Below are positions 1 to 19,959 of a DNA stretch of 64,000 nucleotides, one piece after another; within the stretch, counting starts at the first letter, position 1; every line of letters begins with the position of its first letter. Position numbers and translations under genes: made by a program. The notes under the pieces were generated by a model, which made no database searches, was not told the DNA's origin, and saw only the letters and a program-made list of their open reading frames with translations. The DNA comes from an uncultured Chloroflexia bacterium. Its GTDB lineage: Bacteria > Chloroflexota > Limnocylindria > Limnocylindrales > CSP1-4. The stretch spans positions 1 through 64,000 of the forward strand of contig CAVYBU010000006.1 in the NCBI GenBank assembly GCA_963766735.1. The letters run 5' to 3'.

Positions 1-540
1 GGCAGTGGCCAAAGATACTTCATCTAATGCTTCCAAAGTGTATAAGACAAAGACCGGTAAAACGGATCATAATACGGAGACCCACCCATTCGGACAGAGC
101 CTTAGCACTATCAAGATTAGCACAGAAGGCTTCGAACACAATTATCTGGAAATATATGAGGACAGGGATCCCATTTCTGGTGTATTAATAGCCGACCTGG
201 ATAGTAACGGTTTTGATGAAATTTACATAATTACAACTTCAGCTGGCACTGGTAGTTATGGAACAGTATTTGGGCTTGCTTCAAATAAAGACAAAAGCCT
301 GTCAATGATTAATTTCCCTGAAATACAAGAAGGAGACAGGAATTTCGAAGGATATATGGGACACGATACTTTCAGAATAGAGGATCGAACGCTTGTTAGA
401 ATTTTTCCCATATATAAAAAGGGCGACATCAATCAAAATCCGACCGGCAGGAAACGCAAATTGATTTATGGTTTATATCCAGGAGAGTAGCGATGTGGCA
501 ACTAAATTTAGAGAAGTCAGAAACACTGAACAGCCCATAA
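1..540 (+). CDS. PliI-like (lysozyme-inhibitor-like) protein, 5'-partial, probable frameshift near 487
   Basis: ADLDSNGFDEIYI..SAGTGSYG motif resembles PliI-family SAGSGSY. An alternative frame continues (MWQLNLEKSETLNSP) to TAA at 540. Confidence 0.5.
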
Positions 541-608
541 GCTGGGAATAGAATGAGAATATGCCAGTCAATATAAATAATGTTTTTGGAATTGAATCCG
601 AAAACTCT

Positions 609-787
609 GTATCTGACAAACTAACAATTTGACGTCTGAATTTTTGAAGATAATGTAAACATCTATGCGAAATGAACCGAGTCTCAAAATGTGTGATATC
701 AGATTACGATATATGCATTTTTGCCAGAGTTGGGATTACATCTACATATCTGTAATTCGGGAGAATTTGTGATATTTTATGACATCA
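609..787 (+). repeat. Composite intergenic repeat, copy A
   Basis: GTATCTGACAAA...GATAATGTAAACATCTATG (TGTAAAC 654-660)...TTTTGCCAGAGTTGGGATTACATCTAC...TTGTGATATTTTATGACATCA. Confidence 0.9.
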
Positions 788-837
788 CACATGAATGAAT
801 CTGACCAAATGAATTATGCATTTAAAGGAACGTTTTC

Positions 838-2049
838 ATGAGGAAAAAATGCAAGACGTATATTGTATTAGTGATGTTTTTTTTTGGAACCGTTGGGCAG
901 ATCAAGGCAGAGGAAAACATCATGATAAAAAACATAGCTCGGGATAACACCTTGTTTGCTCTGGATCTTTACAACCAGTTGAAAATGACTGACGGCAACC
1001 TATTTTTCTCGCCGTTTAGTATTTTTACTGCGCTTGCCATGACCTGGGCTGGAGCCCGCGAAAACACTGCCGTTCAGATGGCCGAAACGCTGCATTTCAC
1101 CGAGAAACCCGCTCAGTTTCATCGCGCTATAGGAGATCTGATTTCACAACTTAATGCCGTTCAAAAAGAAACCGATGTTGAACTCAGCATTGCCAATGCG
1201 ATCTGGGCTCAGAAAGGCTACCAATTTCTGGATGAATTTTTCCGGATAGTTCAGCAATCTTATCAGGCTGATCTGAAGCAGGTTGATTTTTCAAGCGCCG
1301 CTGAATCAGCTCGTCAGGCAATCAATGCCTGGGTGGAGCAGCAAACCAATGAGAAGATCAAAGATTTATTGCCGCCCAAAGTGCTCAATGCGCTCACCCG
1401 TCTGGTTTTGGTGAACGCGATTTATTTCAAAGGATTCTGGGACAATCAGTTTAAATCCCGTGACACACGGGAAATGGAGTTTTGGCTGTTGACCGAGGTC
1501 GCCGTTAAGGTGCCGATGATGCACCAGGAACATCAATTCGGATACTGGGAAAATGACTGGTTGCAGATAATTGAGATGCCGTATAAAGAAGAGTCTCTGT
1601 CTTTAATCGTTTTACTTCCCAAAGAAAAGACCGGAATTACTGATTTGGAGCAAAAACTGAATTTTGAAAATATGATGGCCTGGCAAAGCCGGTTGCGAAA
1701 ACGAAAGGTTATTGTTTTCTTTCCAAAATTCAAGATCGAATCGCAATTTAGTTTAGGTCAGACCCTTGCCTTGATGGGCATGCCGGATGCCTTTGATCCC
1801 GAACTGGCTGATTTTTCAGCCATGGTGGGTCAGAAAGAACTGTATATTTCGGCGGTGATTCACAAAGCCTTTTTGGAAGTCAATGAGGAAGGCAGCGAAG
1901 CGGCGGCGGCCACCGGTGTGGTGGTTAGCGTGACCTCCATTGCGCCATCGCCACCGATATTCAAAGCCGACCATCCGTTTGTTTTCTTTATTCGGGACAA
2001 TAAGTCACAAAGCATTTTATTTCTCGGACGGGTGCTAAATCCGGCTTAA
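838..2049 (+). CDS. Serpin (serine protease inhibitor), secreted
   Basis: NLFFSPFSI, LVLVNAIYFKG, hinge EEGSEAAAAT, FKADHPFVFFI; N-terminal signal peptide. Confidence 0.95.
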   Translation: MRKKCKTYIVLVMFFFGTVGQIKAEENIMIKNIARDNTLFALDLYNQLKMTDGNLFFSPFSIFTALAMTWAGARENTAVQMAETLHFTEKPAQFHRAIGDLISQLNAVQKETDVELSIANAIWAQKGYQFLDEFFRIVQQSYQADLKQVDFSSAAESARQAINAWVEQQTNEKIKDLLPPKVLNALTRLVLVNAIYFKGFWDNQFKSRDTREMEFWLLTEVAVKVPMMHQEHQFGYWENDWLQIIEMPYKEESLSLIVLLPKEKTGITDLEQKLNFENMMAWQSRLRKRKVIVFFPKFKIESQFSLGQTLALMGMPDAFDPELADFSAMVGQKELYISAVIHKAFLEVNEEGSEAAAATGVVVSVTSIAPSPPIFKADHPFVFFIRDNKSQSILFLGRVLNPA

Positions 2050-2060
2050 TCGTTAGAGTA

Positions 2061-2182
2061 CAACGTTATCTCAGGGGCGGGAGGGTGAGTTGTGATTCCA
2101 TCTACATATCTGGAATTTAATGATTTTACATGTATTCTCAATCACCAGCCTAGTGATATTTGGTTTTTGCCATACGATATCA
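2061..2182 (+). repeat. Composite repeat, copy B (central module missing)
   Basis: CAACGTTATCTCA...GAGTTGTGATTCCATCTACATATCTG...CATGTATTCTCAA...GATATCA; shares flanking modules with copies C, D and E. Confidence 0.7.
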
Positions 2183-2208
2183 AGACCTGGCGGAATCCAC
2201 GTTAATGA

Positions 2209-2238
2209 TTGACAAAATCCCATCGATTTGGGTATAAA
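2209..2238 (+). promoter_or_regulatory. Sigma70-type promoter
   Basis: TTGACA-18 bp-TATAAA upstream of the cyclase gene. Confidence 0.55.
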
Positions 2239-2400
2239 TAAATGAATTTATACTATTTCTAATTTTCCTATTCCATCTGATCTGAAATAGTACTCAATTA
2301 GCGCAATAGAATCTGACTTCTCATCCGACTTTTGTGCTCTTCCAAATAATCCACATACTGAGTCCCTTTGTTTGAAACCTTGAGACAAGGGGGTGACACT

Positions 2401-4317
2401 ATGGCAGAAAAGGGTTTTAAACGTAAACTCACAGCTATCCTTAGCGCTGATGTTGTTGAATACAGCCGCATGATGCGAGATGATGAGGATGCCACCATCC
2501 GCACGCTGACAAATTATCGTTCTGCCATGTCAAATCTCATCCAAAAATTCCGTGGTCATGTAGTGGACACCATAGGCGATAATCTGTTGGCTGAATTTAC
2601 CAGTGTAGTGGATGCCGTAAATTGTGCAGTTGAGATTCAACGAGAGCTTGCCGAACGAAATGCCGAGTTTTCTGAGGAGCGGAAAATGAAGTTTCGAATC
2701 GGTGTCAATCTTGGTGATGTTGTTGAGGAAGAAGGTCGAATTTACGGAGATGGAGTGAATATCGCCGCTCGGATGGAGAGCTTGGCTGTGGCTGGAGGCA
2801 TTTGCATATCCGGAAGCGTGTATGACAGTGTGGAAAGCAGATTGGGATTGGAATATGAATTTTTGGGCGAACAGGAAGTCAAAAACATCGACAGGCCCGT
2901 CAGGACTTACAGGGTCCTGTCTTTTCCCGGTGCTGCAGCCCACCGGGTAGTTCAGGCCCGGGAGGTAGTTGGGAAAAAGTGGCGTATGTCGGCAATAACG
3001 GCTGGGGCTGTTTTAGTGCTGGTGGCTGCCGGGGCAATCATATGGAACAGTTACCTTCGACCTGTCTCTGTGGAAAAGGCTTCCATTGAAAAAATGGCCT
3101 ATCCCCTGCCCGATAAACCCTCGATCGCCGTGCTGCCATTTGTCAACATGAGTGGTGATCCTGAACAGGAATATTTTAGTGATGGTTTCACCGAAGATCT
3201 CATTACGACACTCTCAAAGATACCGGATCTGTTCATAATCTCCCGTCAATCAACCTTCACCTATAAAGGTAAACCGGTTAAGGTGAACAAGGTCGCCGAA
3301 GACCTTGGTGTCCGCTACGTATTGGAGGGCAGCATCCAGAAATCCGATGATAAAGTGAGAGTAACCGCCCAGCTTATTGACGCCGTCAAAGGCAATCATC
3401 TATGGAGTGAGCGTTACGATCGAGAACTAAAAGACCTTTTTGAGCTCAAAGAAGGCATCATTTTGAAAGTTGCAAATGAGTTATTGGTTGGGCTAGTAAC
3501 CGGAGAGTTTCTACGCCAAATAGTTGGTTATACGGACGATCCTGAGCCTTGGCAGACAAACAATCTTGAGGCATGGGAGACTTATTGGGTTGCACAAAAG
3601 TACGCAAGACGCTTCAGAAAAGAAGACAATGCACGAGCCCGCGATCTTTACACAAAGGCTTACCAACTCGATCCCAACTGGTATATCCCATTAGTGGCTA
3701 TAGGCTATACCCATAGGAATGACGCACGGCATGGTTGGAGCGAGTCGCGTAAAAAATCGTTTGATCTGGCCACTGAGATGGCCAATAAAGTGCTCGCCAT
3801 TAATGATGAATCCGCCTCAGCCTACGGTCTTCTCGGTGCGATCCACCTGATGAAAAGAGAATATGAAAAAGCGAATTACTATAATGAAAAAGCACTGAGC
3901 CTCGCTCCTAACTACTCCGAAGCTCATGCGGGAAGAGGATTTTTGCTAAACTATTTAGGAAAGCCTCAAGAAGCGATCATGCATTTCAAAATAGCCATGC
4001 GGCTCAGCCCTTTTTACCCCCCGTGGTACCTCTATCATCTGGGGTTATCATATCATCTGACCGGGCAATACGAGCAAGCAATCGAAACCCTAAAAAAAGG
4101 GATTGAGCGAACACCGGATGTTATATTTCCACACGTTAGACTGGCTGCAGTATACAGCGACCTTGGTCGCGAGCAAGAGGCTCGCGCTGAGGCGGAAGAA
4201 GTTCTCAGGATAAAGCCAGACTTCTCAGTAGAGAACTATGCAAGAGCCAACCCCTTTAAAGACACTGCCATTGTGGAATACAGAAAGGAGTTGCTGCACA
4301 ACGCCGGGCTTAAATGA
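2401..4317 (+). CDS. Class III adenylate/guanylate cyclase with TM, TolB-like and TPR domains
   Basis: RKLTAILSADVVEYS, FRIGVNLGDV, GDGVNIAARME, PSIAVLPFVNMSGDPEQEYFSDG, C-terminal TPRs. Confidence 0.93.
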   Translation: MAEKGFKRKLTAILSADVVEYSRMMRDDEDATIRTLTNYRSAMSNLIQKFRGHVVDTIGDNLLAEFTSVVDAVNCAVEIQRELAERNAEFSEERKMKFRIGVNLGDVVEEEGRIYGDGVNIAARMESLAVAGGICISGSVYDSVESRLGLEYEFLGEQEVKNIDRPVRTYRVLSFPGAAAHRVVQAREVVGKKWRMSAITAGAVLVLVAAGAIIWNSYLRPVSVEKASIEKMAYPLPDKPSIAVLPFVNMSGDPEQEYFSDGFTEDLITTLSKIPDLFIISRQSTFTYKGKPVKVNKVAEDLGVRYVLEGSIQKSDDKVRVTAQLIDAVKGNHLWSERYDRELKDLFELKEGIILKVANELLVGLVTGEFLRQIVGYTDDPEPWQTNNLEAWETYWVAQKYARRFRKEDNARARDLYTKAYQLDPNWYIPLVAIGYTHRNDARHGWSESRKKSFDLATEMANKVLAINDESASAYGLLGAIHLMKREYEKANYYNEKALSLAPNYSEAHAGRGFLLNYLGKPQEAIMHFKIAMRLSPFYPPWYLYHLGLSYHLTGQYEQAIETLKKGIERTPDVIFPHVRLAAVYSDLGREQEARAEAEEVLRIKPDFSVENYARANPFKDTAIVEYRKELLHNAGLK

Positions 4318-4420
4318 ATTGGCTTGTTTTTTCTAAGCATCGCAATCCTATTAAGAAACAAGTGCAGATTGCTTCTTCAATAACCAACTATCTTGGGTCT
4401 TCAATTTTTACGGATTTCTC

Positions 4421-4541
4421 CAACGTATCTGACAAATTTTGGACCTCTAAAAATGTCAGATAATGTAAACATCTATGAAAATTTGACCTGTATTTAGAAT
4501 TTGTGGTATCAGATGCATTTTTACCAAAGTTGGGGTTACAT
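4421..4541 (+). repeat. Composite repeat, copy C (ends just before the YR/IS91 element's flanking hairpin)
   Basis: TATCTGACAAATTTT..AAAAATGTCAGATA hairpin, ATGTAAACATCTATG...AGTTGGGGTTACAT. Confidence 0.9.
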
Positions 4542-4550
4542 AGAATAGCG

Positions 4551-4654
4551 TTTTATCAATCGTTGCGCTGACGCAAATAAGGCAACAATACCGGTGGCAT
4601 TTTAGTTTCAGATAAATGTGTAGATGAGTTAAGCCTCAGCAATGATTGATAAAA
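4551..4654. repeat. Long imperfect hairpin flanking the element's left end
   Basis: TTTTATCAATCGTTGCGCTGA ... TCAGCAATGATTGATAAAA; the loop contains GTAGATG (inverted CATCTAC). Confidence 0.75.
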
Positions 4655-4947
4655 TGGTGAACTGTACCGCGGCTGGGCGGCAGGATTCGACGAGTGTAGT
4701 CTATGGGGATTATATGGATGGCATCAAGTCAATAGTTTTCATCGAGGGCACTGATTTGAGCAGGGTGAATTTAATAAAATGAAAAATTTGACCTATCTGC
4801 GCCCCATTTGTTGTTTGAAAATTATGATAAGTCTGCAAAATCATATTTGTATACACATCGATGGCAGAAAGCGTGCGCAGCTGTACTGTCGTGCTTTAAC
4901 AGCAACTTTTTAATCTTAGAAAATAAGCATCAAGACAGATATAGTGG

Positions 4948-6155
4948 CTATGATGAATTCAAATCATTTTTTGGCAATTTTCTGATTGGTATCATTTTAC
5001 CCTTCTTGCATTTCGGACAGCAGCTAATGTCTATGCCGGTCAATCGGAGCATCATTTCGCTGATGCTCTCTTTAATTTTCTCCGGCAATGTTGCATCCGG
5101 ATCGATTAATTTTCTAATAAGCGGGATATCTTTTTTTTTGTTTGTGTGAGCTAAAAAGCCAAAGTATCGGATTTTGAAAAAGCCCTTTGGCAGGACATGA
5201 AGCAAAAATCGGCCGATGAACTTATCAGCATCAAGGGTCATTTCTTTGATTTCATTGTCTTTTTGACGATCCCGGTAGGTAAAAGTGACGCTGCCGTTAT
5301 CAATGGAGATGATCCGATTGTTAGATATGGCAACCCGGTGAGTGTAGCGGCCAAGATACTCAAGTACCTGCTGGGGACCTGCAAAAGGGCGCTTTGCATA
5401 GGCGATCCATCTTTTTTTTGAAACCGAGTTAATCAGCTGTTGGAATGCTTGCCTGGAGTTAAGGGCAGCAGTTTTTTGGGTAAAAATCAACTCGTCTTTT
5501 AAATAGGCGTTCAACAGCAGTTTGAGATAGCGTTTTCTAAACTCCTTAGCCAGAGAAGTGATTTTAAACAGAAAGTTATCTTTGGTCGGTATCCATTTGT
5601 CTTTGGTGAAGGAAAGAGCCCCTGCGGGAATCAGGCAGTGCAGATGGAAATGGTCGATAAGCGTCTGTGACCAAGTATGCAAAACGCTGATGAATCCGAG
5701 CCGGCCTTCAAGTCTCCACTGAGGATCTTTGGCAAAGGCTTGAAGGGTTTGATTGACAGCGGCAAACAAGATGTTCAGGGTCGTTCTTTTGTTGGATAAT
5801 ATAATGGGATTAAGGTCATGTGGCAGGGTGAATACCAGGTGGAAGTAACCGCAGGGGAGCAGTTCTGCTTTGCGGTCATTAAGCCATTGTTCCTTTGTCA
5901 TCGTTTGACATTTAGGGCAATGTCGATCCCGACATGAATTATAAGCATTTTGCTCAAATGCACATTGGTCGCATTGCTCAACATGACCGCCAAGCACAGC
6001 GGTTCGGCATATTTCAATATGGTGCATGACTTTTAACTGTTCATAGGACGCGCGTGTGATCGCCGGTAATCATCTGCGTAAAGGCGGAAAATATCGGCCA
6101 GTTCCACTTGTTCTTTGTTTTTGGGGGCCAGGGAATCATTGTGTGTTTTTTTCAT
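4948..6155 (-). CDS. IS91-family transposase (zinc-binding + Y2_Tnp), frameshift near 6050
   Basis: CRTAVLGGH..C..C..YNSCRDRHCPKCQ, HLVFTLP, HTW..HFHLH (HUH), YLGRY (YxxxY), IRYFG; the N-terminus ELADIFR lies in another frame. Confidence 0.92.
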
Positions 6156-6167
6156 TATTGCACCTCC

Positions 6168-7022
6168 TTACTCATCATCTTCATAAAGGGTATCCAGCGG
6201 GCTTTTGCACTGTTGGACCCGCTCGGGTATGAGGTGGAGGTAAATAATGGTGGATTTTAAAGAGGAGTGGCCCAAAAAACGCTTAAGGGTGTAAAGATCC
6301 ATTCCTTGGTAAAGTGAATGAGTAGCGAAGGTGTGCCTCAGACAATGGATACCGAGGCCCTTGGTTAGACCGGCTTTTTTTTTGCGAGGTAAAAAGCGGT
6401 TTGTGCCGCGCCTTCACACAGGTGGGTTTGAGGCTTTTGTCCGGCAAACAACCATTTGCCGGGACGATATTTACTCCAATAAGTTCTCAGATCCGTAAGC
6501 AGCCTTTTGGGAAAGAATTGTGTAACGATCCTTTTTGCCTTTGCCCTGATCGACGCGAATCATCATGCGGTCAGCATCACTTTCGATGTGCTTGGGCTTA
6601 AGGCGAACCAGTTCACTGACCCGCAGCCCTGAGCCATAAACGGTTTGCAACAACAGCCGGTGTTTAAGATTTTCAGCTGCAGCAAGCAATCGTTTTACTT
6701 CCGGTTGGCTAAAAACAACCGGCAGTTTTTTAACACGGGGCCGGGGCGGGATTTGAAACTCGGCATCGTCCCATTTACAAATATGCCTGTAAAAGCAGAC
6801 AATACCGGACAAATAAGAATTACAGGTGCCCCAGGACAATTTGCGTTCTTCAAGCAAATGGCGGATATAGTCCTGGATCTGGTCGTTGGTCAAGGTGTCG
6901 GGCGATTGCATGTAATATTTGGACAATAGCTTAACACCAGTTACGTAGCTTCTCTTTGTGTGATCGGAAAATCGTTGCAAGGTCATGTAGTTGAGAAATT
7001 GGGTTTTCAGTTCACTGGCCAT
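6168..7022 (-). CDS. Tyrosine recombinase (N-terminal SAM-like domain), frameshifts near 6505 and 6385
   Basis: GLRVSE, KGKKDR, then in shifted frames HCLRHTFATH, LGH, STIIY; full R-K-H-R-H-Y set present. Confidence 0.9.
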
Positions 7023-7178
7023 AATAATACCTCCTTGGTAAAAAGTTAATATAATAGGACGCTTTACCTGGAGATACTATAAAACAATATAGCTTGGATT
7101 AGGAGGTTAAAGTTGATCTGTCGATAAAATGAATTCGGTGGGTAAACATTCTCCGCGAAGCGGTTCAGTTCATCTTAC

Positions 7179-7208
7179 TAATCACAGGTTTGCTTATTTC
7201 TGTGATTA
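7179..7208. repeat. Hairpin flanking the element's right end
   Basis: TAATCACAG-12 nt-CTGTGATTA immediately after CAGTTCATCTTAC. Confidence 0.7.
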
Positions 7209-7247
7209 CATAATAATATCCAAAATTTTGATCAGTGTATCAGCTTG

Positions 7248-7344
7248 TGTAAACATAGTCAGTTCACTCATGATTTAAAAAGATCAATTGTTGAGCCTCT
7301 GCTCAGCGAAACGACCGCTCCAGCAGAGTTGTGCTGACGTTACA
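7248..7344 (+). repeat. Divergent repeat-like hairpin
   Basis: TGTAAACATAGTCAG...AGAGTTGTGCTGACGTTACA; same TGTAAACAT/GTTACA ends, different interior. Confidence 0.5.
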
Positions 7345-7443
7345 ATATTTCCTCCGGCCCGCGCTATACTTTGGGAAAATAGTATTGATCGGGATCTGAC
7401 TGAGTTTGTTTCATATCAATGCATAAATCGACAGAGGTGAATA

Positions 7444-8100
7444 ATGGAAAACCCGATTCAGAATTACCGGCAGATAAGGTTGGCACGTGTAAAAGAGTCA
7501 TTGGAGGGGAACAATTTCGAGGCATTTATCGCAGAAAATGTAGAAGAGGCAAAACAAATCATGAAGGAGGAGATTCTGCCCAAATTAAGAGATATAAAAA
7601 TCGTTTCTAGAGGAGATTCCTTGACATTTGAAGCTACAGGTATGCTGGAGGTAATTGAAAAAAACACGGCCTTTGACTTCTTGGATCCCTTTGAAAAGGG
7701 TCTCCCTGATGAAGAAATATACGAACGGGGTAGGCAGGCACTTCTGACGGATCTATTTTTTACAGGAACAAATGCTCTGACAGAGACGGGTATCCTTGTC
7801 AACCTCGATGGGTGGGGAAATCGGGTTGCGGGTCTTACCTATGGACCCAAATACGTGATCGTTACGGTTGGCCGGAATAAGATAGTCCCTGATTTGGATA
7901 GTGCAATGTATCGGATTAAAGATTATGCAGCTCCGGTCAATGCCATGCGGTTCAACACGAAGACACCCTGTGTAAAGACATCCTTTTGTGAGGATTGCAA
8001 GAGCCAAGATCGCATCTGCAGCACCTGGACCATCACGGAAAAATCTTTTCCAAAAGGCAGGATAAAGGTGATTTTAATCAACGAAGAATTAGGATTTTGA
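7444..8100 (+). CDS. LUD-domain (LutC/YkgG-like) protein
   Basis: GTNALTETGILVNLDGWGNRVA, GRNKIV, TPCVKTSFCEDCKS. Confidence 0.88.
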   Translation: MENPIQNYRQIRLARVKESLEGNNFEAFIAENVEEAKQIMKEEILPKLRDIKIVSRGDSLTFEATGMLEVIEKNTAFDFLDPFEKGLPDEEIYERGRQALLTDLFFTGTNALTETGILVNLDGWGNRVAGLTYGPKYVIVTVGRNKIVPDLDSAMYRIKDYAAPVNAMRFNTKTPCVKTSFCEDCKSQDRICSTWTITEKSFPKGRIKVILINEELGF

Positions 8101-8158
8101 ATATTTATTTATTGGGTGCCTCAACAGCCAATTCTCATTTATTATGGATATGTTATGC

Positions 8159-8452
8159 ATATCTGCAAAAGGTTCTGTCTTAAAAAATTACAGATATTGT
8201 AAACATCTATGTAGAATTGACCGACCTATAAAACTTGTGATATCAGATTACGGATAGCCATTTTTGCCAGAGTTGCTGTATCATCTACGTGTCTTTACTT
8301 TTACACTTTTCCATGTATTCTCAACATCTATGCAAATTTGACCGACCTTCACAAATTGTGATATTAGATTACGGTATATGCGTTTTTGCAAGAGTTGGGG
8401 TTACATCTACTACCTGCAAGTTTCAGGTAAGTTGTGATATATTATGATATCA
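8159..8452 (+). repeat. Composite repeat, tandem copies D1 (core 8198-8289) and D2 (core 8323-8410)
   Basis: Two AACATCTATG...AGAGTTG..CATCTAC units joined by a ...CATGTATTCTCAA module, ending TGATATATTATGATATCA. Confidence 0.9.
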
Positions 8453-8577
8453 ATAGTTTTATAGAAAATTAGAATTTCAAAAATATTGTACCAAATAGAA
8501 TCTATGATATTGAATAGTATAGATTCCACCTAATACATGTTAGCTGAACATCAACACAATAAAGGAGATCCAAGTTC

Positions 8578-10005
8578 ATGAAAACCACACTGTCGAAAAT
8601 TCTTCTGAGCACGATGCTTGTGTTCGCGTCCCTTCCTTCTATTTCCGCCCACGCGGACATTGACCTCACTTCAGCGGAAATTGAGGCCATCGCCGAGGAA
8701 GGCTTCATCTACGGTCTACCGATCGTGATGAACTATGGGGTGATGAACGAATACGCGATCAACCGCGATTCCGGCCAGTTCAAGGCCCCGTTCAACCACA
8801 TCAAGAACGAGGCACGCGTCTTCACCTACAAGGACACCGCGATCATCACACCGAACAGCGACACACCTTACTCGCTGCTGTGGCTCGACCTGCGGGCGGA
8901 GCCAATCGTCCTGTCCGTTCCCGCGGTGGACAAGAACCGTTACTACTCGGTGATGCTCGAGGACGGCAACACCTTCATTTACGGCTACATCGGGAGCCGC
9001 GCCACCGGTTCCGAAGCGGGCGACTATATGGTCGTCGGCCCGGGTTGGAAGGGCGAGGTCCCGGACGGGATCAAGAAGGTTTTCCACTCCTCCACCCAGT
9101 TCTCGCTGGTTGCCTACCGCACCCAGCTGTTCAATCCTGAAGACATGCCAAACGTGGTAAAAATTCAGTCCGGTTACGGAGTGAAACCGCTCTCCGAGTT
9201 CCTCGGCCAGCCGGCTCCCAGCCCCGCGCCGAAGATCGATTTCCCGAAGTTCGACAAGGAAATGGTGAAAACGAAGTTCTTCGATTACCTGGAGTTCTCG
9301 CTCCAGTTCGCGCCTGCCGGTCCGGAGGAAAAAGAAATTCGCGCGAAGCTCGCCAAGATCGGAGTTGGCCCGGACAAGACCTTCGACTTGGACGATCTCT
9401 CTCCAGAGCAAAAGAAAGCAGTGGCAGCAGGCATGAAGGCCGGTGAAGCCAAAATCGCAGAATACCTCAAGACGCAGCTGATCGAACTGAATGGCTGGGG
9501 CATCAGCAGCTATTTTGGGGATCGCGCGTTCTATAACGGCGATTGGCTGAAACGTGCCGCAGGCGCGCAAGCTGGAATCTATGGTAACGAGTCCATCGAA
9601 GCCGCCTATCCGATCGCCAAAACACTGGCTGACGGCTCGCCACTCGATGGAAGCAAGAGCAACTACACGATCACCTTCCCGGCCGATGGATTTCCGCCGG
9701 TGAACGCCTTCTGGTCGGTGACCATGTACGACGGCAAGACCCAGTTGCTGATCAAGAACCCGATCAACCGCTACCTGATCAATTCGCCGATGCTGCCGGA
9801 CATGAAGAAGAACGCCGATGGATCACTGACTCTTTACATCCAGAAGGACAGTCCCGGAGCCGAAAAAGAGAGCAACTGGCTCCCGGCCCCCGACGGCCCG
9901 ATCTACCTCGCGATGCGCCTCTACTGGCCGCGCACGGAGTCGCCAACGATCCTGCCGATCGGCAAGGGCGACTGGAAGCCACCGGTCATCGTGGAGGTTA
10001 AGTGA
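8578..10005 (+). CDS. DUF1254/DUF1214 secreted protein
   Basis: FIYGLPIV, TPNSDTPYS, FWSVTMYD, NWLPAP, MRLYWP; signal peptide. Confidence 0.92.
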   Translation: MKTTLSKILLSTMLVFASLPSISAHADIDLTSAEIEAIAEEGFIYGLPIVMNYGVMNEYAINRDSGQFKAPFNHIKNEARVFTYKDTAIITPNSDTPYSLLWLDLRAEPIVLSVPAVDKNRYYSVMLEDGNTFIYGYIGSRATGSEAGDYMVVGPGWKGEVPDGIKKVFHSSTQFSLVAYRTQLFNPEDMPNVVKIQSGYGVKPLSEFLGQPAPSPAPKIDFPKFDKEMVKTKFFDYLEFSLQFAPAGPEEKEIRAKLAKIGVGPDKTFDLDDLSPEQKKAVAAGMKAGEAKIAEYLKTQLIELNGWGISSYFGDRAFYNGDWLKRAAGAQAGIYGNESIEAAYPIAKTLADGSPLDGSKSNYTITFPADGFPPVNAFWSVTMYDGKTQLLIKNPINRYLINSPMLPDMKKNADGSLTLYIQKDSPGAEKESNWLPAPDGPIYLAMRLYWPRTESPTILPIGKGDWKPPVIVEVK

Positions 10006-10007
10006 CC

Positions 10008-10137
10008 AGCTAACAATGGGCTCCAAGGGACCGGCGGGCAGCGCGGTTTTTCGAGGTTCAGCCTTGCTGCCAAATTTGTAAGTCAATCAAAGCTCAGTGC
10101 TGCAAATCTCCGCCGGCCTCTGGGCTCAAGGTTACAT
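10008..10137 (+). other. attC site (130 bp)
   Basis: R'' AGCTAAC just after the stop codon; arms GGGCTCCAAGGGACCGGCGG / CCGCCGGCCTCTGGGCTC; R' G|TTACAT. Confidence 0.85.
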
Positions 10138-10148
10138 ATGTCTGCGTT

Positions 10149-10310
10149 GTATCTGTAAAAAATGGAAGCCCCAAAAGTGCATATACTGTAAACATCTATG
10201 TAGAATTGACCGACCTTTAAAAAATGTGATATCTGTATTTTTGCCGGGGTTGGGGTACCATCTACGTATATGTAGTTTGGCGATTTTGCATGTATTCAAT
10301 ATACATGCAA
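10149..10310 (+). repeat. Composite repeat, copy E
   Basis: GTATCTGTAAAA...ACTGTAAACATCTATG (10187)...GGTTGGGGTACCATCTAC...CATGTATTCAA. Confidence 0.88.
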
Positions 10311-10441
10311 TTTTGATGAATGTGATTTTATTTATTATATCGCAAGTTTGGAGAAAGTAGTGGTTTCATCTTTATCAGGGTATTAGGTTGATAAATAAAA
10401 ATCGATATAACAACTAATGCTAAACCTAAGGATATGAAATT

Positions 10442-10825
10442 ATGGAGCCTAAAGCCAATGACAAGAGAGTATCATCTTCTTCACCAAACCTGCCTCAGAA
10501 AGTGCGCAAAATTTTAATTGTTTACCTTATATCTGCTGTTATTGTTTTGGTTATCTGTTTCATTTTTGGATGGCGATCAATAGAAAATATTGGAACCGGA
10601 TTTATATATGGTTCCTTGAGTCTGGCACTTTTCGGCGCATTGCTCTTGGCAGGGAATACGGTTCCTGCTCAACTTTCTAAACTTTCACTCCCCTCTGTTA
10701 GACGCCATCAAGAAAACGAAAGCGATGGTTCTCCGTCTAAGGATGAAGGAAAAAGATTCTTTTTTACGACTTTAATATGTGGAGCATTTTTATTTGTGAC
10801 AGGACTTATTTTAAAATTATTGTGA
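10442..10825 (+). CDS. Small membrane protein (3 TM), unknown function
   Basis: 127-aa ORF with hydrophobic segments and an AAGGA RBS. Confidence 0.7.
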   Translation: MEPKANDKRVSSSSPNLPQKVRKILIVYLISAVIVLVICFIFGWRSIENIGTGFIYGSLSLALFGALLLAGNTVPAQLSKLSLPSVRRHQENESDGSPSKDEGKRFFFTTLICGAFLFVTGLILKLL

Positions 10826-10894
10826 TATTTGGCATATCTGTAAAATGGCCCAACTGCATCAATATATCACAACTTGAGTTAAAGGGGCTGAGAG

Positions 10895-11944
10895 ATGAAA
10901 ATAGTGAAAAGGATTCTTCAAGGTTTGGGCATCTTCATTGGAATAATTGTCCTTTATCTATCAATCGTGACCTTTTTCCCTGGCTTCAAGGTTCTGGAAC
11001 AACCTCTTGAACAACGTAAGCAATTAAAAAGTGATGTAGACTCAGAACTATCTTCAAAAAGAAAAAATGTGAGTTTTAAAGTCAAAGGGACGTCGATAAG
11101 TGCATGGTTGTATCTTCCAGATAATTTATCTGTTCCAGTTCCTTGTATCATTATGGGTCATGGATTTGGGGGTACGAAAGATATGGGTTTGGAATCTTAT
11201 GCTATTCGTTTTCTGGAAGCTGGCTTTGCGGTGCTCATTTTTGATTACCGACACTTTGGCGAAAGCGAGGGAGAACCTCGGCAGTTGATATGGATTCCTT
11301 ACCAGCTGGAAGATTGGTCATCGGCGATCACTTATGCACGAGGGCTTAAGCAGATTGATCCATCAAAAATTGCTCTCTGGGGGACCTCTTTGAGTGGTGG
11401 CCACGTGATTGCAACTGCTGCAAAAGACAATCAGATTGCTTGTGTAGTCGCACAATGTCCTGGACTGGATGGTCGGGCATCCGGAGAGATGTTTTTTGAT
11501 AGAGTAGGAATCGGATATCTGCTTCGTATGGCAATGCACGGACAACGTGACTACTTGAGGTCGTGGTTTGGACTTTCGCCTCATAAAATACCAATTGTCG
11601 GAAAACAAGGAAGTATTGCTTGTTTGACTACTCCAGATGCTTACGACCATTTCAGAAAATTTGCACCAGCCAATTATATTAACGAAGTCTGTGCTCGTAT
11701 CTTTATTCGGGGAGACAAATACAGGCCGGTCAAACAGGCCCAGAATGTGCGTTGCCCAGTTCTGCTTCAGATATGCGAAAATGACAGTATAATTCCCAAA
11801 AGTGCAGCAGAAGAAACTGAAAGGCAATTAGGGAAATACGCAGAAGCGATATACTATCCAATCGGCCACTTTGATATCTATATAGGGGCTAACTTCGAAA
11901 AGGCTGTAAAGGATCAGCTTTTGTTTTTTAAGAAGCACCTGTAA
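10895..11944 (+). CDS. Alpha/beta hydrolase
   Basis: HGFGG, FDYRHFGESEGEPRQ, nucleophile elbow GTSLSG, GHFDIY. Confidence 0.92.
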   Translation: MKIVKRILQGLGIFIGIIVLYLSIVTFFPGFKVLEQPLEQRKQLKSDVDSELSSKRKNVSFKVKGTSISAWLYLPDNLSVPVPCIIMGHGFGGTKDMGLESYAIRFLEAGFAVLIFDYRHFGESEGEPRQLIWIPYQLEDWSSAITYARGLKQIDPSKIALWGTSLSGGHVIATAAKDNQIACVVAQCPGLDGRASGEMFFDRVGIGYLLRMAMHGQRDYLRSWFGLSPHKIPIVGKQGSIACLTTPDAYDHFRKFAPANYINEVCARIFIRGDKYRPVKQAQNVRCPVLLQICENDSIIPKSAAEETERQLGKYAEAIYYPIGHFDIYIGANFEKAVKDQLLFFKKHL

Positions 11945-11960
11945 TATCTCCAACAAAAAA

Positions 11961-12083
11961 CAACTATCTGGCATCACTTAAAACTGCATATACTGTAAAC
12001 ATCTATGCAGAATTGATAGGGCTTTAAAACTTGTGAAACCAAATTACGATATTTGCAATTTCACAAGATTTGGGAGTACAGCT
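11961..12083 (+). repeat. Composite repeat, copy F (degenerate)
   Basis: CAACTATCTG...ACTGTAAACATCTATGCAGAATTGA (11994)...TTACGATAT...AGATTTGGGAGTACA. Confidence 0.8.
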
Positions 12084-12120
12084 GAAACAATGTTGATATG
12101 AATATCAGAGGTTCGATGAG

Positions 12121-12651
12121 ATGAAGTCTAAAATAGCAGAAACTCTGATAGCTTCACTTGGAACACTATTTTTCCTATTTTTGATAATTCCTTTCTTTTT
12201 GATCTGGATACCCCATAGAATCCTTTTATCGCCTGAATATATTTACCGTTTTGACATCGGTATATATCGGTATTTTGGGCTGTCTCCGATAGTACTCGGT
12301 GTTGTAATATACATTTTTTGTTCTGGTAGTTTCGTATTTGTTGGCAAAGGTACACCGATACCTTTTACGCCAACTAAAGAGTTAATAGTGACTGGATTAT
12401 ACAGATTTGTTAGAAATCCATTGTACATTGCTGGAGTTCTTGTTTTGGCAGGAGAAGCAATTCTATTTCAATCTTTAGGCATATTTCTTTATTGCTTGGT
12501 AATGTTTGGGGTTTTCAATGTCCATGTCATCATGGAGGAAACTTTATTAGCAGAAAAATTTGGTGCGAGATACGAACAATATTGCAAGTCTGTTCCTCGT
12601 TGGATTCCAAGATTAAAACCCTATAGTAAAAAAGATACAGAGTCCAAATAA
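12121..12651 (+). CDS. Isoprenylcysteine carboxyl methyltransferase/PEMT family membrane protein
   Basis: GKGTPIP, LIVTGLYRFVRNPLY, EETLLAEKFG..YEQY...VPRWIP. Confidence 0.9.
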   Translation: MKSKIAETLIASLGTLFFLFLIIPFFLIWIPHRILLSPEYIYRFDIGIYRYFGLSPIVLGVVIYIFCSGSFVFVGKGTPIPFTPTKELIVTGLYRFVRNPLYIAGVLVLAGEAILFQSLGIFLYCLVMFGVFNVHVIMEETLLAEKFGARYEQYCKSVPRWIPRLKPYSKKDTESK

Positions 12652-12712
12652 ACAAATCTGCGAAGTTTCCAACTTTTTTCAGGTGAGCCTAAATTGCAGA
12701 TATCCTGCTATG

Positions 12713-12886
12713 GTATCGGAAAAAAATTGCCCGCCCAAAAGTACTGATACTGTAAACATCTATGCAAAATTGACCGGTCTTTAGAATCTGTGATATCAGA
12801 TTACGATATATGCATTTTTGCAAGAGTTGGGGTTACATCTTACGTATCCAAAGTTTGAGGAAATTTGTGATATTTTATGGTATCAA
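12713..12886 (+). repeat. Composite repeat, copy G (near consensus)
   Basis: GATACTGTAAACATCTATGCAAAA (12751)...TTTTGCAAGAGTTGGGGTTACATCT...TGATATTTTATGGTATCA. Confidence 0.9.
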
Positions 12887-13029
12887 AGGTTTTGAAAGGC
12901 GTGATCCTCGTTATATTTTCTCAAACGAAGGTTGATTTAAACTGAGACAATGGTTTGTTATTTTCAATCCTGATGAGGTAAAGATAACCTTTTGATAAAA
13001 AGACCCTGTAATTTTGAAAGGAGGTTGAA

Positions 13030-13209
13030 ATGGCTACTATAATCGTTGAGAGTAAATGGCCTGCTGCAAGTTCCGAAAAGCTTGCTAAGACATGGTTGGA
13101 AATGGGTGATGTAGCAGAATCGCAGAAAATGATTTGGGCCGGCACTTTAGATGATATTAATTTAGTAAGGATACGCTCACGGGCAAGTGAAAATTGCGTT
13201 TATGGGTGA
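13030..13209 (+). pseudogene. Short ORF probably interrupted by the IS4-type element
   Basis: Strong RBS GGAGG and ATG at 13030 (MATIIVESKWP...); coding character is lost near 13150. Confidence 0.4.
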
Positions 13210-13297
13210 ACTTTTTACCGAATAAAAAGCCTCCTTGTGGTAAGAATTACAAGCGCCAACTAATAATTCTACACCAAAAGCAAGGAGGCTAGAGACG

Positions 13298-13810
13298 ATG
13301 ATACACCAAATTGGCAGGAAATTGCGACAGCAAATTCATTATTTTTCGGGTGAACTTTGTAAGGTATGGGAACCGTGGCTTCCCGCTTTGTTGAGGAGGC
13401 CGTTTTTGGCATATCTGCCAGCGGATCTGTTCGGTTGACTGAAATCGGTCGGGCTTTAGAGGAAAAAATTCCGCTTCATGCGACCCACAAGCGTTTGAGT
13501 CGTAATTTGGCAGATCAAAGCCTTGAAGATAACCTGGGGAGCAACGTTCTCAAGTTGGGCTCAAAACGTATAAACGAAAATACGCTACTGATCGTTGACC
13601 CATCTGATGTTAAAAAAAAATACGCCAAGAAAATGCAATATCTAGCCGATGTGCGTGATGGCAGCGAGGATACAATCGGAAAGGGATACTGGTTATGCGA
13701 AATCGTTGGCTGTGAAGTCGGATCAAATGAGATTACACCGCTGGCACAAGAACTATGGTCGCAGGATGCGCCTGATTTTAAGAGCGATAACGATCAAATC
13801 CTTTACCTTG
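13298..13810 (+). mobile_element. IS4-type DDE transposase, N-terminal fragment truncated at the junction
   Basis: SVRLTEIGRAL, KRLSRNL, LIVDPSDVKKKYAKKMQYL..VRDGS..GYW; frameshift near 13365. Confidence 0.8.
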
Positions 13811-15321
13811 GCCGGGCCGGTGCAGCAGGTACCCCTGGCCCGCGTCAAAGCCCATCTCGATGACGGCCAGGAGCTGGTCGGGTGTCTCGATGCCCTCGGC
13901 GACGGTCGTCTGGCTGCGTCGCTGGGCAAGCTCGCGAAGCGCGCGCAGCACGGCCTGGGAAGACTCATCCCGGACCCCGGCCTGGACCAGCGAGAGGTCG
14001 ATCTTCATGATGTCGAACTCGAGCTCCCGCAACAGCCGGAGGCCGGCGTTGCCGGCGCCCACGTCGTCGGCCGCGATCCGCATGCCGTGCCCCCGAAGCA
14101 GCGTGATGGCCTGGCGGAGCCGGTCGAGATCCTCGACGGCCTCGCGCTCGGTCAGCTCCAGGACGATCCGGGCGGGGTCGAACCCGCGTTGGCGGACGAG
14201 CGCGAGGAACTCCTGGGGCTGGAAGGCATCTGCCTCGAGAGACCGCGGCGAGAGGTTGACCGACAGGTAGAGGTTCGCGCCCATCGTCCGCGCTCCGGTC
14301 AGGACGGTGTCGAGGCTGGCCAGGTCAAGCTCCACGGTGTGATCCGTCGACTCGGCCGCGATGAACAGGGCGCTCGCATTGGCGAACCCGGCGTCCGCAT
14401 TCGGGCGAACCAGGCCCTCGTAGCCCAGGACGCGTCCCGTCCGCAGGCAATGGATCGGCTGGTACACGGGCGTGAGGAGGCGGTCTGCCGAGACGCGGGC
14501 CACGGCGGCTGCCAGCTCCGGCAGAGACCGTCCGTCATCCACGATTCCGTGCCGGGTCGGGTCGAAGAGCTGGACGTCGGTGCGGCCGTGGCGCTTCCCC
14601 CAGTAGAGCGCGGCACCCGCCTGGTGGACCAGCTGCTTGAGATCCCTGGCCAGCTCGGGCATGGCCGAGACACCGATGGTCAGCGAGAACGGGGCGACGC
14701 CAAGCGTCCCGGAGCCACCGCTCAGTGCGCTCGCCAGGATCCGTCGCGCGGTGCCGACGGCCTCATCCGGCCCCCCGTCCGGCAGCACGATCGCGAAGTC
14801 GTCACCGCCGATCCGGAACCCACGTTCCGATCCGCGGAGGGTGCCCAGGATGATCCGGGCCGTGGCCCGGAGGATGTCGTCGCCAGCGGCCTGACCCTGG
14901 GCCTCGTTGATCTGCTTCAGGTCGTCCACGTCCAGGTACAGGAGCGCGATCGAGCCTGACTCGGCACGGGCCGATGTCACCTGGCGACCGAGCTCCTCCT
15001 GGAAGGCCCGGTGGTTGCCAAGGCCGGTCAGCCCGTCGCTCAGCGCATCCAGGCGGGCACGATCGTAGGCGTCCTTGAGCCCATCCTGCTCGTTGTCGAG
15101 ACTCGCCACCTGGCCCAGGATCCGCCGCAGGGCCAGCCCGGACAGGACGCTGAACGCGATCACGATGGACAGCCAGAGGAGCGAGCGCCCAGCGGAGCTC
15201 GGGGTTCAGTCTGCCACGCGATCAGCAGGGTCGCAGCGACCCACAGCGCGGCGCATGCAACGAACCAGCGCACCAGGCTCGTGCGAATCGTCCGCGCCAT
15301 CGGGGTCGCGGGAGTCTTCAT
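13810..15321 (-). CDS. Membrane GGDEF/EAL protein, 3' end truncated at the junction, frameshift near 15160
   Basis: DGLTGLGNHRAF, GGDDF, YEGLVR, LELTE, DDVGAG, KID, AEGIET, QGYL. Confidence 0.9.
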
Positions 15322-15543
15322 CTGGGTGGAGTCCGTCCCTGTGCGGTGCCACCGCTCGGCAGCCAACCTGTTGTACGCCCGCACCGGCAATCTGGCTCCG
15401 GTACCAAAGTCCGGGACGGCATGCCGGAGACTGGCCACCGGGGCACCGGCCAGCGTGCGGGGCTGCCCGCAGCGGCTCACCACGAGCGCGCCCGAGGGCT
15501 AGTCTGGAGTCCTTCACCCTGAAGCCACCACGGAGCGAACCCA

Positions 15544-16311
15544 ATGCGACTCGACGGCAAGGTCACGATCATCACGGGCGGCGGCAGCGGCATGGGCAGG
15601 ACCGCGGCCGAGCTGTTCGCGAAGGAGGGCGCACAGGTCGTCGTGGCGGACTTCTCGGAGGCCTCCGGCGAGGCGGCCGCGGCGGCCGTCAGGGCGGCCG
15701 GCGGCCAGGCGACGTTCGTCAGGGCGGATGTCTCCAACGAGGACGACGCTCGCGGGATGGTCCAGCACGCGATTGCCACCTATGGCCGCGTGGACGCGCT
15801 CTACAACAATGCCGGGGTCATGCCGGAGGCCGATCACTCGGTCATAGACACCGACGTGGACACCTGGGACAAGGTCATGGCCGTGAACGTGCGCGGCGTA
15901 TTCCTGGGCTGCAAGTACGCGATCCCGCAGATGCTGGAGCAGGGCTCCGGCTCCATCATCAACATCGCCAGCTTTGTCGCGATCCTCGGCTGCTCCGTGC
16001 CGCAGGATGCATACACGGCGTCCAAGGGGGCGGTCCTGGCCCTCACCCGCTCGCTGGCCGTCCAGTTCGCGGGCCGCGGCGTCCGCAGCAACTCGATCAG
16101 CCCCGGTCCCATCGAGACGCCGCTCCTCATGGACTGGCTGCTCAAGGACGAGGCCGCGAAGCAGCTCCGCCTCAACCGGAACCCGTCCGGCCGGTTCGGC
16201 AAGCCGGAGGAGATCGTCAACGTCGGGGTCTACCTTGCGTCCGACGAGTCGAAGTGGACGAATGGGGCAAACTTCGTCGTGGACGGCGGCATCAGCATCA
16301 ACTACTTCTAG
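15544..16311 (+). CDS. Short-chain dehydrogenase/reductase
   Basis: TGGGSGMG, NNAG, YTASK. Confidence 0.95.
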   Translation: MRLDGKVTIITGGGSGMGRTAAELFAKEGAQVVVADFSEASGEAAAAAVRAAGGQATFVRADVSNEDDARGMVQHAIATYGRVDALYNNAGVMPEADHSVIDTDVDTWDKVMAVNVRGVFLGCKYAIPQMLEQGSGSIINIASFVAILGCSVPQDAYTASKGAVLALTRSLAVQFAGRGVRSNSISPGPIETPLLMDWLLKDEAAKQLRLNRNPSGRFGKPEEIVNVGVYLASDESKWTNGANFVVDGGISINYF

Positions 16312-16392
16312 CCGAAGGCCGGCGGCCGCGACCGGTCTGACTGCAAGGCCGGCGACCGCGACCAGCCGGCCACCTTCGCGAGGAGCCTGCCC

Positions 16393-17301: not shown

Positions 17302-17405
17302 CGTCCCCGGGGCGGAGCCCAGGTCCTGCGCGCGGGCGCGCAGTACCGAAACGTGCCGCTCCGTGCGCGGCGGGCGATGGCCTCCATCACGCTTGATCCT
17401 ATCGG

Positions 17406-19235: not shown

Positions 19236-19294
19236 GTGGTCAGGCTCGGGTCCGCGGACGCCGGGCAGAGATCCCGCCCCGATCGAGGACGCCG

Positions 19295-19958: not shown

Positions 19959-19959
19959 G

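Follow-up and report, generated by a model that had tools for sequence, protein, structure and literature searches.

The window analysed in this study comprises the first 64 kb of contig C6 from the assembly of an uncultured Chloroflexia bacterium (3.6 Mb in 35 contigs, each with 68–72% G+C), and seven copies of a modular repeat of approximately 290 bp lie between co-oriented, unrelated genes at positions 609–12925. The first 13.8 kb of the contig, within which all of these copies are located, is compositionally not part of the remaining genome, and its relatives are genomes of Desulfobacterales. The element is placed before accessory genes in a few Desulfobacterales. The reading that we favour, with a probability of roughly 45%, is that of a lineage-specific, polar, mosaic junction or upstream element which is reshuffled by recombination between its own copies.

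An earlier note on this stretch had described a repeat built of hairpin modules (U0, U1 and one of two forms of U2, termed U2a and U2b) that are joined by two short sites, core1 between U0 and U1 and core2 between U1 and U2. The modular repeat is present and is not a product of chance, since a repeat search over 609–12886 returned families of 6 × 85 nt and 7 × 29 nt, and the motif TGTAAACATCT occurs six times between 654 and 12751, always on the + strand, with no occurrence elsewhere in the 3.6-Mb assembly.

Structure of the element

Altogether, 46 distinct copies were gathered, of which 39 were aligned after five with a profile score below 50 and two with masked N had been dropped. In this alignment the element extends from AGCCTCAAT.. 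to ..TCTCAAT. The modules U0, U1 and U2 and the cores were recovered as described earlier, but the unit is longer, because a conserved 5′ piece, 'AGCCTCAATTACCGATAT', and a conserved 3′ piece, 'GGTTTTGGGAGGCGTGGTTTTTTGCAAATTATCTCAAT', had been missed. At least five modules are found, in the order 5′ piece, U0 (in at least two alternative versions), CTGTAAAC, ATCTATGCA or TAATCTGCA, U1, GTTG-N-GATTACATC, TAC-N-TATCTG with one of several versions of U2, and the 3′ piece to TCTCAAT. The best-conserved letters are TGTAAAC, AAATTGACC, parts of TGTGATATCAGATTA and GATATCTG, and the CAT of core2, which is invariant or almost so. U2b, which has this TCTCAAT end too, looks like an internal-deletion form. 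Furthermore, the U1 signatures differ by genome, and there are deletion and duplication variants with their joints at CAT, TGTAA or TCTCAA.

The copies in the window, the module parse of which was checked by eye on the intergenic sequences, are the following.

585..793, + strand: copy A, with the 5′ piece, U0 (610–652), core1 TGTAAACATCT (654–664), U1, CATC of core2 (739–742) and U2a (743–790); full-element hidden Markov model (HMM) match at 617–793, 148.5 bits
2087..2142, + strand: copy B, with the final 16 nt of U1 only, core2 (CATCTAC 2099–2105) and U2b ending TCTCAAT (2136–2142)
4407..4541, + strand: copy C, left part, with the 5′ piece, U0, core1 and U1, ending ..GGGGTTACAT (full-element profile)
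7174..7275, + strand: copy C, right part, CTTACTAATCACAGG..CTGTGATTAC (a U2 variant) and a degenerate 3′ piece (full-element profile)
8138..8461, + strand: copy D, double, with U0-U1, CATC 8282–8285, U2b 8286–8324 (ending TTCTCAA), a second U1 from CATCTATG (8325), CATC 8404–8407 and U2a
10129..10345, + strand: copy E, with U0, U1 with a 13-nt deletion, GGGGTACCATCTAC (CATCTAC 10259–10265), U2b and a second U2a-like piece
11939..12120, + strand: copy F, with U0 of type b (CTCCAACAAAAAACAAC..), core1, U1, a degenerate core2 (GTACAGC) and a short palindrome directly before the start codon
12685..12925, + strand: copy G, the most complete, with the 5′ piece, U0, core1, U1, CATC 12836–12839, U2a and the 3′ piece ending TCTCAA; HMM positions 3–240, 206.7 bits

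Core1 is present in six of the seven U1 copies, D2 carrying TTCTCAA-CATCT in its place, and A, B, D1, D2 and G have an intact core2 (AGTTG-N6-CATCT), which reads GGTTG in E, is degenerate in F and is cut after CAT in C. The order U0-U1-U2b-U1-U2a that had been given for copy D agrees with what is seen by eye, as does the assignment of U2a to A, D2 and G and of U2b to B, D1 and E. Copy B had been said to lack U1 entirely; most of this module is indeed missing, but its final 16 nt are kept. It had also been proposed that the spacer of core2 tracks the module that follows it, which is the case in six of six instances in the window but only partly among the 39 copies, where the spacer TACC precedes U2a six times and U2b three times; U2b follows none of the 23 'TTAC' spacers and five of the 16 others.

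Distribution and polarity

Genome contigs were scanned with the 14-mer TGTAAACATCTATG, which gave at least 120 loci; among the 120 listed, three (L008, L081 and L091) hold the repeat (nhmmer, E < 1e-3) and the others are chance occurrences of the 14-mer. These three loci led to the genomes G001–G003, the first of which is a complete 7.0-Mb Desulfobacterales chromosome. In G001 all 40 scored candidates match, out of 95 candidates, on both strands from 0.49 to 6.96 Mb, and the copies form small clusters of three to five, while G002 has 19 matches and G003 has two. Five of the 121 sampled genomes of Desulfobacterales have a match to the repeat. Identity between copies is 74–88% over 100–170 nt, with about 80% being typical. 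Among sequencing runs, part of the window stretch was found in 20 rows from 16 studies, none with half or more of the sampled words. Four sediment runs, all consisting of contigs, were compared up to position 13,800, and apparent 'joints' between copies in these contigs proved to be other copies of the family and not deletions. A literature search on integrons and attC sites of Desulfobacterales matched no paper, and one on repeats of Desulfobacteraceae yielded none of relevance among the papers listed.

Neighbouring open reading frames (ORFs) were called simply as the longest ORF; on this basis, the closest one downstream has the orientation of the element in 41 of 46 copies. The five exceptions are copy C, which is split by an insertion sequence (IS), two fragments (HMM positions 1–45 and 1–106), a copy without the usual U2 (G001:6685869) and one next to a masked stretch. 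On the upstream side, 37 of 42 copies have a co-oriented ORF and five a divergent one; a TypA/BipA fragment and a Mu-type transposase, but no recombinase, are among these five. Such counts overstate the number of events because copies in one array are not independent. A scan of 33 downstream genes assigned a cyclase domain to five and no family to ten, the remainder belonging to different families.

Module exchange and shared blocks

The two types of U0 (a and b) and of U2 (a and b) were found in every combination (6, 3, 4 and 2 copies). The class of copies with a deletion in U1 occurs with both types of U0 and both types of U2; seven of its eight members share one 13-nt deletion, which is paired with the 'TACC' variant of core2 in all seven, and the deletion of copy C differs. 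In a paralogous pair in G002, U0 is joined to U2 and U1 is missing.

Three blocks of the window are shared with other genomes. The serpin block (739–2105) is about 99% identical to part of G002:C105, where the neighbours differ: the agreement is 96/99 in 739–837 and 1201/1212 in the gene, and there are zero mismatches in 1915–2105, whereas the parts of the repeat outside the block are ∼78% identical (35/45 in 694–738 and 29/37 in 2106–2142). Mismatches stop at 738 on the left side and resume at 2106 on the right, so that either edge fits the 7-nt sequence CATCTAC (739–745 and 2099–2105). In two DNA runs, sediment contigs begin at position 739 and stop at 2142, and a sediment contig of an RNA library spans 708–2109 and then continues into a U2b of the G002 type, which is a third combination. 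The methyltransferase block, shared with G013, reaches full identity between 12085 and 12105 and ends at 12711/12712, just before U0, the sequence beyond being unrelated. The block of the 127-aa ORF, shared with G013:C25, starts directly after the CTAC of a core2 and ends inside the ORF (10503), where a fragment of U1 is joined. No further shared block above 90% identity was found when a 16-kb array of G001 was compared with four genomes. The joint after the CAT of core2 is a recurrent edge, seen in shared blocks, in deletion variants and in an IS insertion.

In the four-gamete test, which is noisy at 20–25% divergence, single-site incompatibility amounted to 199/267 within U1, 258/319 across core1 and 212/286 across core2 for 20 copies of G001, and to 359/727, 403/512 and 364/571, respectively, for all 39 copies. 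A pairwise maximum-chi-square analysis found 340 of 741 pairs to be significant, with clusters at alignment columns 55–74 (90 pairs) and 165–184 (124 pairs); they carry no weight as support, since variable flanks on either side of a conserved U1 produce this pattern even if no exchange has taken place.

On these comparisons, the modules are units of exchange, and the earlier interpretation is partly supported. The earlier note had placed the exchange at the CATC-containing cores and had proposed that breakpoints be mapped relative to CATC. Reassortment of the modules, the edges of the serpin block and the breaks in the sediment contigs agree with this proposal, as do the left edges, which lie at or just after core2 in all three shared blocks. 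However, the right edges disagree with one another, edges are found elsewhere (12711/12712 and 10503) and incompatibility is equal inside U1.

Folding and core-site arms

The description of the repeat as a chain of hairpins is weakly borne out. The covariation check was run on the 39 aligned copies: RNAalifold returned zero consensus pairs, and in the four named helices 68.9% of the cells pair, which is near the level in shuffles (66.2%), compared with 34–53% when the partner is slid. Individually, the helices are paired in 59–74% of their cells, with helix 2 at 68%. Some double changes occur in the U0 and U2a helices, and the arms of U0 are complementary in copies C and D only. In U1, one position (R-box, helix 2) never pairs and another (L-box, helix 4) pairs in six of 38 copies. 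On folding as single-stranded DNA, 17 of the 19 module segments of the window behave like shuffled sequence (z between −1.65 and +1.09), the outliers being U0 of copy C (z = −4.7) and U2a of D2 (z = −2.3); for U1, z lies between −1.63 and +1.09 in seven of seven window copies.

The core site of a tyrosine recombinase consists of two inverted binding arms around an overlap region of 6–8 bp, and the cores had been likened to such sites. Inverted arms were sought around core2, taking the best of 30 arrangements (five shifts × six spacer lengths), and they reach at least 8/10 in only four of 39 copies and at most 6/10 in 29. The arms originally proposed are merely 4–5 bp long, and the likeness was not upheld.

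The insertion sequence in copy C

Copy C is interrupted by a decayed element with the following parts.

4542..7173, − strand: IS91-family insertion sequence of about 2,632 bp, with some ambiguity at the ends from the shared CAT (family scan, profile and in silico removal)
4948–6027, with an N-terminal piece in another frame at 6033–6167, − strand: Y2 HUH transposase, broken
7022–6471, about 6559–6368 and 6413–6171, − strand: tyrosine recombinase, broken, in three frames, upstream of the transposase

The transposase matches Y2_Tnp (1.7e-56), Zn_Tnp_IS91 (9.1e-26) and NF033538 (408 bits versus a cut-off of 125); it therefore combines a Y2 HUH transposase with the N-terminal zinc-binding domain of the IS91 family. 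The IS is 86% identical over 2,341 nt (4630–6963) to a copy in G001, and its depth in sediment metagenomes is 10–20 times that of its flanks. Removal of 4542–7173 in silico joins ..GGGGTTACAT to CTTACTAATCACAGG.. and restores a single full-element match of 138.7 bits in place of two of 111.9 and 16.8 bits, which places the IS inside core2 of copy C.

Integron integrases carry an extra domain of ∼35 aa inside the catalytic domain. The pieces of the recombinase match positions 4–79 and 118–169 of Phage_integrase and are separated by about 35 aa where the profile has 38 positions, which leaves no room for this domain; in comparison, 159 residues of the IntI of G001 cover 121 profile positions. 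An assignment of 6171–7022 as an integron integrase was rejected for this reason and because the match to TIGR02249, 98.6 bits for the N-terminal piece alone, is below the cut-off of 265. The earlier note had regarded the recombinase and the HUH enzyme as candidates for the machinery of the repeat. Both belong to one decayed IS91 element in copy C and adjoin none of the other copies; this element, its tyrosine recombinase included, is a separate insertion and does not drive the repeat. In G002:C43, a further IS91-type end (CCGCGAAGCGGTTCAGTT) adjoins a copy upstream of U0.

Interpretation

Under the favoured reading, the element would spread and be reshuffled through recombination between copies, by gene conversion and unequal exchange, with deletion at short direct repeats such as the ACATCTA that is common to core1 and core2. 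The copies would act as portable homology, by which incoming single genes replace or join resident ones. Genes travel with their own U2 leader, and the shared blocks therefore start right after the CATC of core2. The genome-specific signatures of U1 fit concerted evolution within each genome, and the finding that incompatibility in G001 is as frequent inside U1 as across the cores fits a general exchange between copies.

The part of U1 with the highest conservation, TTGACC-N14-GTGATATC, may in addition be a promoter for the downstream gene, a role suggested by conservation and polarity alone. The exact pattern TTGACC-N13–17-GTGATATC has 20, 8, 1, 3 and 0 matches in G001, G002, G003, G013 and G088, respectively, compared with one match in total for the reversed control, and the spacing is 14 nt in 31 of the 32 matches. 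Other candidate functions were tried and rejected: no copy with a reversed U1 was found, as an invertible promoter would have; TGTGA and TCACA in U2a are, by eye, 12 nt apart and not six as in a CRP site; and there is, again by eye, no GG at −24 for a sigma-54 site.

Several observations weigh against recombination between copies or against the promoter. The two edges of the serpin block fit a single 7-nt site, a tidier outcome than exchange driven by homology needs, and core2 is also the point of the IS insertion and the start of several deletion variants, while the four-gamete test that agrees with general exchange is noisy. As for the promoter, a sigma-70 scan was passed by one of the seven window copies (U1 of D2), with 29 sites found overall versus 27.7 expected, and the candidate −10 box is without its final T; promoter and terminator scans were at chance overall, with one hairpin listed in copy E. 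The sediment runs are all contigs and are thus blind to transcript starts. Furthermore, copies stand inside an apparent ABC-transporter gene pair in G001, where a promoter is not obviously needed.

If recombination between copies is all that occurs, the repeat is one more lineage-specific family, yet an unusually clear and large 'mobile upstream region' before dozens of unrelated genes, and it shows that short repeats are able to serve as portable homology for the exchange of genes between species in sediments.

One alternative is a dedicated site-specific cassette system, in which a U2 leader, a gene and a U0-U1 3′ end form a unit that is cut and joined in CAT^CTAC of core2 by a recombinase encoded elsewhere, with a logic similar to that of integrons but with a different site and dispersed arrays. 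This is a possible but doubtful explanation. It would account for the CATCTAC edges of the serpin block between flanks of merely 78% identity, for the third haplotype in sediment, with a window-like U1 end and a G002-like U2b, for the left edges at or just after core2 and for the (near-)invariant CAT of core2. The single unrelated genes between copies, one of them with foreign G+C, the strict polarity and the 'empty' 122-bp unit in copy D are also in its favour. However, no recombinase is a regular neighbour of the copies, 35 of 39 copies show no inverted arms of the classical kind around core2, and the right edges vary between CATCTAC, a position before U0 and one inside an ORF. Moreover, U0-U1 is not always the 3′ end of a cassette, because the upstream gene is divergent in five of 42 copies, and only three blocks are informative, the 16-kb G001 array having added none above 90% in four genomes. 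In its fullest form, that of an undescribed integrase-independent gene-cassette system of marine-sediment Desulfobacterales, genes with their leader would be captured, excised and swapped at CAT^CTAC in a 290-bp junction that also supplies expression signals, with many small scattered arrays in place of one integron; we consider this unlikely. If the exchange at CATCTAC is enzymatic, the system would be a second, independent solution to the task of the integron in an abundant uncultured group, and it would offer a defined site for finding the enzyme.

Integron attC sites are defined by an R′ core GTTRRRY, with the cassette edge at G/TT, and an R″ core RYYYAAC. That the copies are such sites, in arrays without an integrase (clusters of attC sites lacking integron integrases, CALIN) and served in trans by an IntI encoded in the genome, is very improbable, although the arrays of co-oriented single genes are cassette-like, an IntI above the family cut-off is found in G001 (388.8 bits) and twice in G003, and U1 is ∼95 bp long with the inverted-repeat pairs TGTAAAC/GATTACA and TGCAAAA/TTTTGCA and 5 nt between the left pair. 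The ORF of the G001 IntI matches only model positions 2–281 of 315. No copy of the repeat lies in the 37.5 kb around it, nor in the stretches of 6.0 and 4.0 kb covered on the two G003 contigs with IntI, and the array beside it has sites of another type: small minus-strand ORFs separated by AACGCC..GGCGTTATAT sites lie upstream of IntI (at 5494437) in 8000–20000 of locus L161, an arrangement that resembles a normal integron cassette array having an attC type of its own. In the repeat, GTTACAT is found in six of 39 copies and ATTAC, GTACC or TTCC in the others, TGTAAAC fits RYYYAAC in AAC and one Y only, pairing is never seen at one R-box position and is seen at one L-box position in six of 38 copies, RNAalifold gives no pairs, and U1 folds like shuffled sequence in all seven window copies; block edges lie after CAT(C) and not at G/TT, the edge after position 738 being past TTA. 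A miniature non-autonomous transposon (a miniature inverted-repeat transposable element or a palindrome-associated one), moved by a transposase elsewhere, for example of the IS200/IS605 or IS91 type, is likewise improbable. The high copy number, the identity of about 80% between copies and the internal-deletion variants would suit it, TTAC ahead of the joint in core2 and TCAA at the 3′ terminus may resemble the cleavage tetranucleotides of IS608, and IS91-type ends abut copies twice (at core2 in the window and upstream of U0 in G002:C43). However, the ends of the element carry a direct CTCAAT (AGCCTCAAT.. and ..TCTCAAT) and no terminal inverted repeats, its orientation relative to genes is non-random, no copy lies in 12 loci around Y1 transposase genes, and no pair of filled and empty sites was found, the sequence past the end of the element in G013 being unrelated. 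Finally, a structured RNA leader common to a regulon, acting as a riboregulator or a processing site, would place the element upstream of and co-oriented with its gene, as observed in 41 of 46 copies, and the RNA-library contig that covers 708–2109, from U1 through the serpin gene, is in line with it. Its probability is also small: Rfam has no match in 1–14000 at E up to 1, the 39 copies yield no consensus pairs in RNAalifold with 59–74% pairing in the named helices versus 66% in shuffles, whole modules are present, absent or duplicated, and contigs cannot show transcript ends, in a library that may contain DNA.

Comparison with known systems

The bacterial interspersed mosaic elements (BIMEs) of Escherichia coli are mosaics of repetitive extragenic palindromes (REPs) and other short motifs, are found for the most part downstream of genes or between convergent ones, and are linked to the gene for a REP-associated tyrosine transposase (RAYT, of the Y1 type). 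The element resembles them as a dispersed, lineage-specific intergenic repeat that combines a few short motifs in several ways and reaches hundreds of copies in the BIME case, but it points at the downstream gene (41/46) and its palindromes are weak. Y1_Tnp has 18, 15 and 13 matches in G001, G002 and G003, and no copy of the repeat was found in the 12 loci fetched around these genes, so that the association of REPs or BIMEs with a RAYT gene was not seen there. The BOX elements of Streptococcus pneumoniae consist of the modules boxA, boxB and boxC, have a predicted stable fold and occur in either orientation; they share with the present element the intergenic position and a modular build with an inner module that varies in presence or number, but the latter has no consensus fold and a strict polarity.

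As in integron arrays, such as those with the Vibrio cholerae repeats, single unrelated co-oriented genes are split by a repeat of 100–300 bp, and one gene is found in different neighbourhoods across genomes with the edges inside the repeat. Unlike in integron arrays, there is no integrase beside the arrays, GTTRRRY is missing in 33 of 39 copies, there is no attC-like fold, the copies are scattered over the chromosome, and the conserved stretch continues downstream of the exchange point. In the pdif modules of Acinetobacter plasmids, genes are flanked by 28-bp XerC/XerD sites with an 11-6-11 inverted-arm layout; these small gene modules also occur in different contexts and are bounded by short conserved sites, whereas core2 is without inverted arms in 35 of 39 copies.

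The nearest published concept is that of putative mobile promoters, for which the criterion is an identity of 80% or more across 50 nt or more upstream of non-paralogous genes (Nijveen, Matus-Garcia & van Passel, 2012; PMC3575422). By sequence alone, the element falls within this definition, with 74–88% identity over 100–170 nt before unrelated downstream families. In that survey, highly similar noncoding sequence likewise lies upstream of unrelated genes in one genome and also in related taxa, with no Rfam match and a way of moving that is unknown (PMC3575422). The survey reports mostly pairs in 100-nt upstream windows (PMC3575422), unlike the present family, which has dozens of members per genome, is ∼290 bp long and modular, and has block edges that point to exchange at fixed joints.

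Neighbouring genes and source of the DNA

The genes that separate the copies in the window are all on the + strand and are mutually unrelated; they are listed here together with the G+C junction.

838..2049, + strand: serpin gene, 403 aa (family scan), with copy A upstream
2143..4317, + strand: leader (2143–2400) conserved among paralogues, then an adenylate cyclase and TPR gene (start at 2368 or 2401, stop at 4317)
7444..8100, + strand: LUD-domain gene (family scan)
8578..10005, + strand: DUF1254/DUF1214 gene, 58% G+C versus about 40% around it (family scan and composition)
10442..11944, + strand: 127-aa membrane ORF (10442–10825) and alpha/beta-hydrolase gene (10895–11944) (family scan)
12121..12651, + strand: PEMT/ICMT-like methyltransferase gene, 93.6% identical (497/531) to G013:C672
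13800..13815, no strand: G+C junction between the 42% block and the 70% remainder of the contig (composition and sequence)

The adenylate cyclase gene belongs to a large family of paralogues with TPR (or zinc-ribbon/AAA) in G001, G002 and G088, which have in common the leader of ∼250 nt; many of the matches in G001 start at query positions 2177–2209. For the DUF1254/DUF1214 gene, no DNA match was obtained in G001–G003, G013 or G088, and it looks foreign, with a repeat copy on either side. Between the 127-aa ORF and the hydrolase gene there is a short palindrome, GTGATAT..ATATCAC, with an ATATCTG motif (10822–10870), which resembles a lone piece of the U2a type. In G001 (6682417–6686000; positions 2418–6000 of locus L164), three genes stand apart with copies of the repeat between them, namely those for a single ABC permease of the branched-chain type, a single ABC ATPase and a PEMT-like protein; the transporter genes are therefore individual units and no operon. 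On the reverse strand of G002:C105 (loci L168 and L169; 14719–16711), a 468-aa ORF has a U0-core1 half on one side and the latter half of a U1 on the other, and is flanked by a different pair of repeats of ∼130 bp, ACGGCTATG..GGAATA..TTGGCAAGA, which may represent a second family of junction repeats.

From position 1 to about 13,800 the G+C content per kilobase is 35–49% (about 42% overall), except for one gene at 58%, and from 14,001 onward in the window it is 64–75%. A chimera of assembly or binning, or else very recent acquisition, is the likely origin of the low-G+C block, because a 42% block with matches in Desulfobacterales stands in an assembly of 68–72% G+C. The abrupt switch in G+C falls within an IS4-like ORF (13366–13863) and also at the 3′ end of a GGDEF/EAL gene (13778–15163, − strand).

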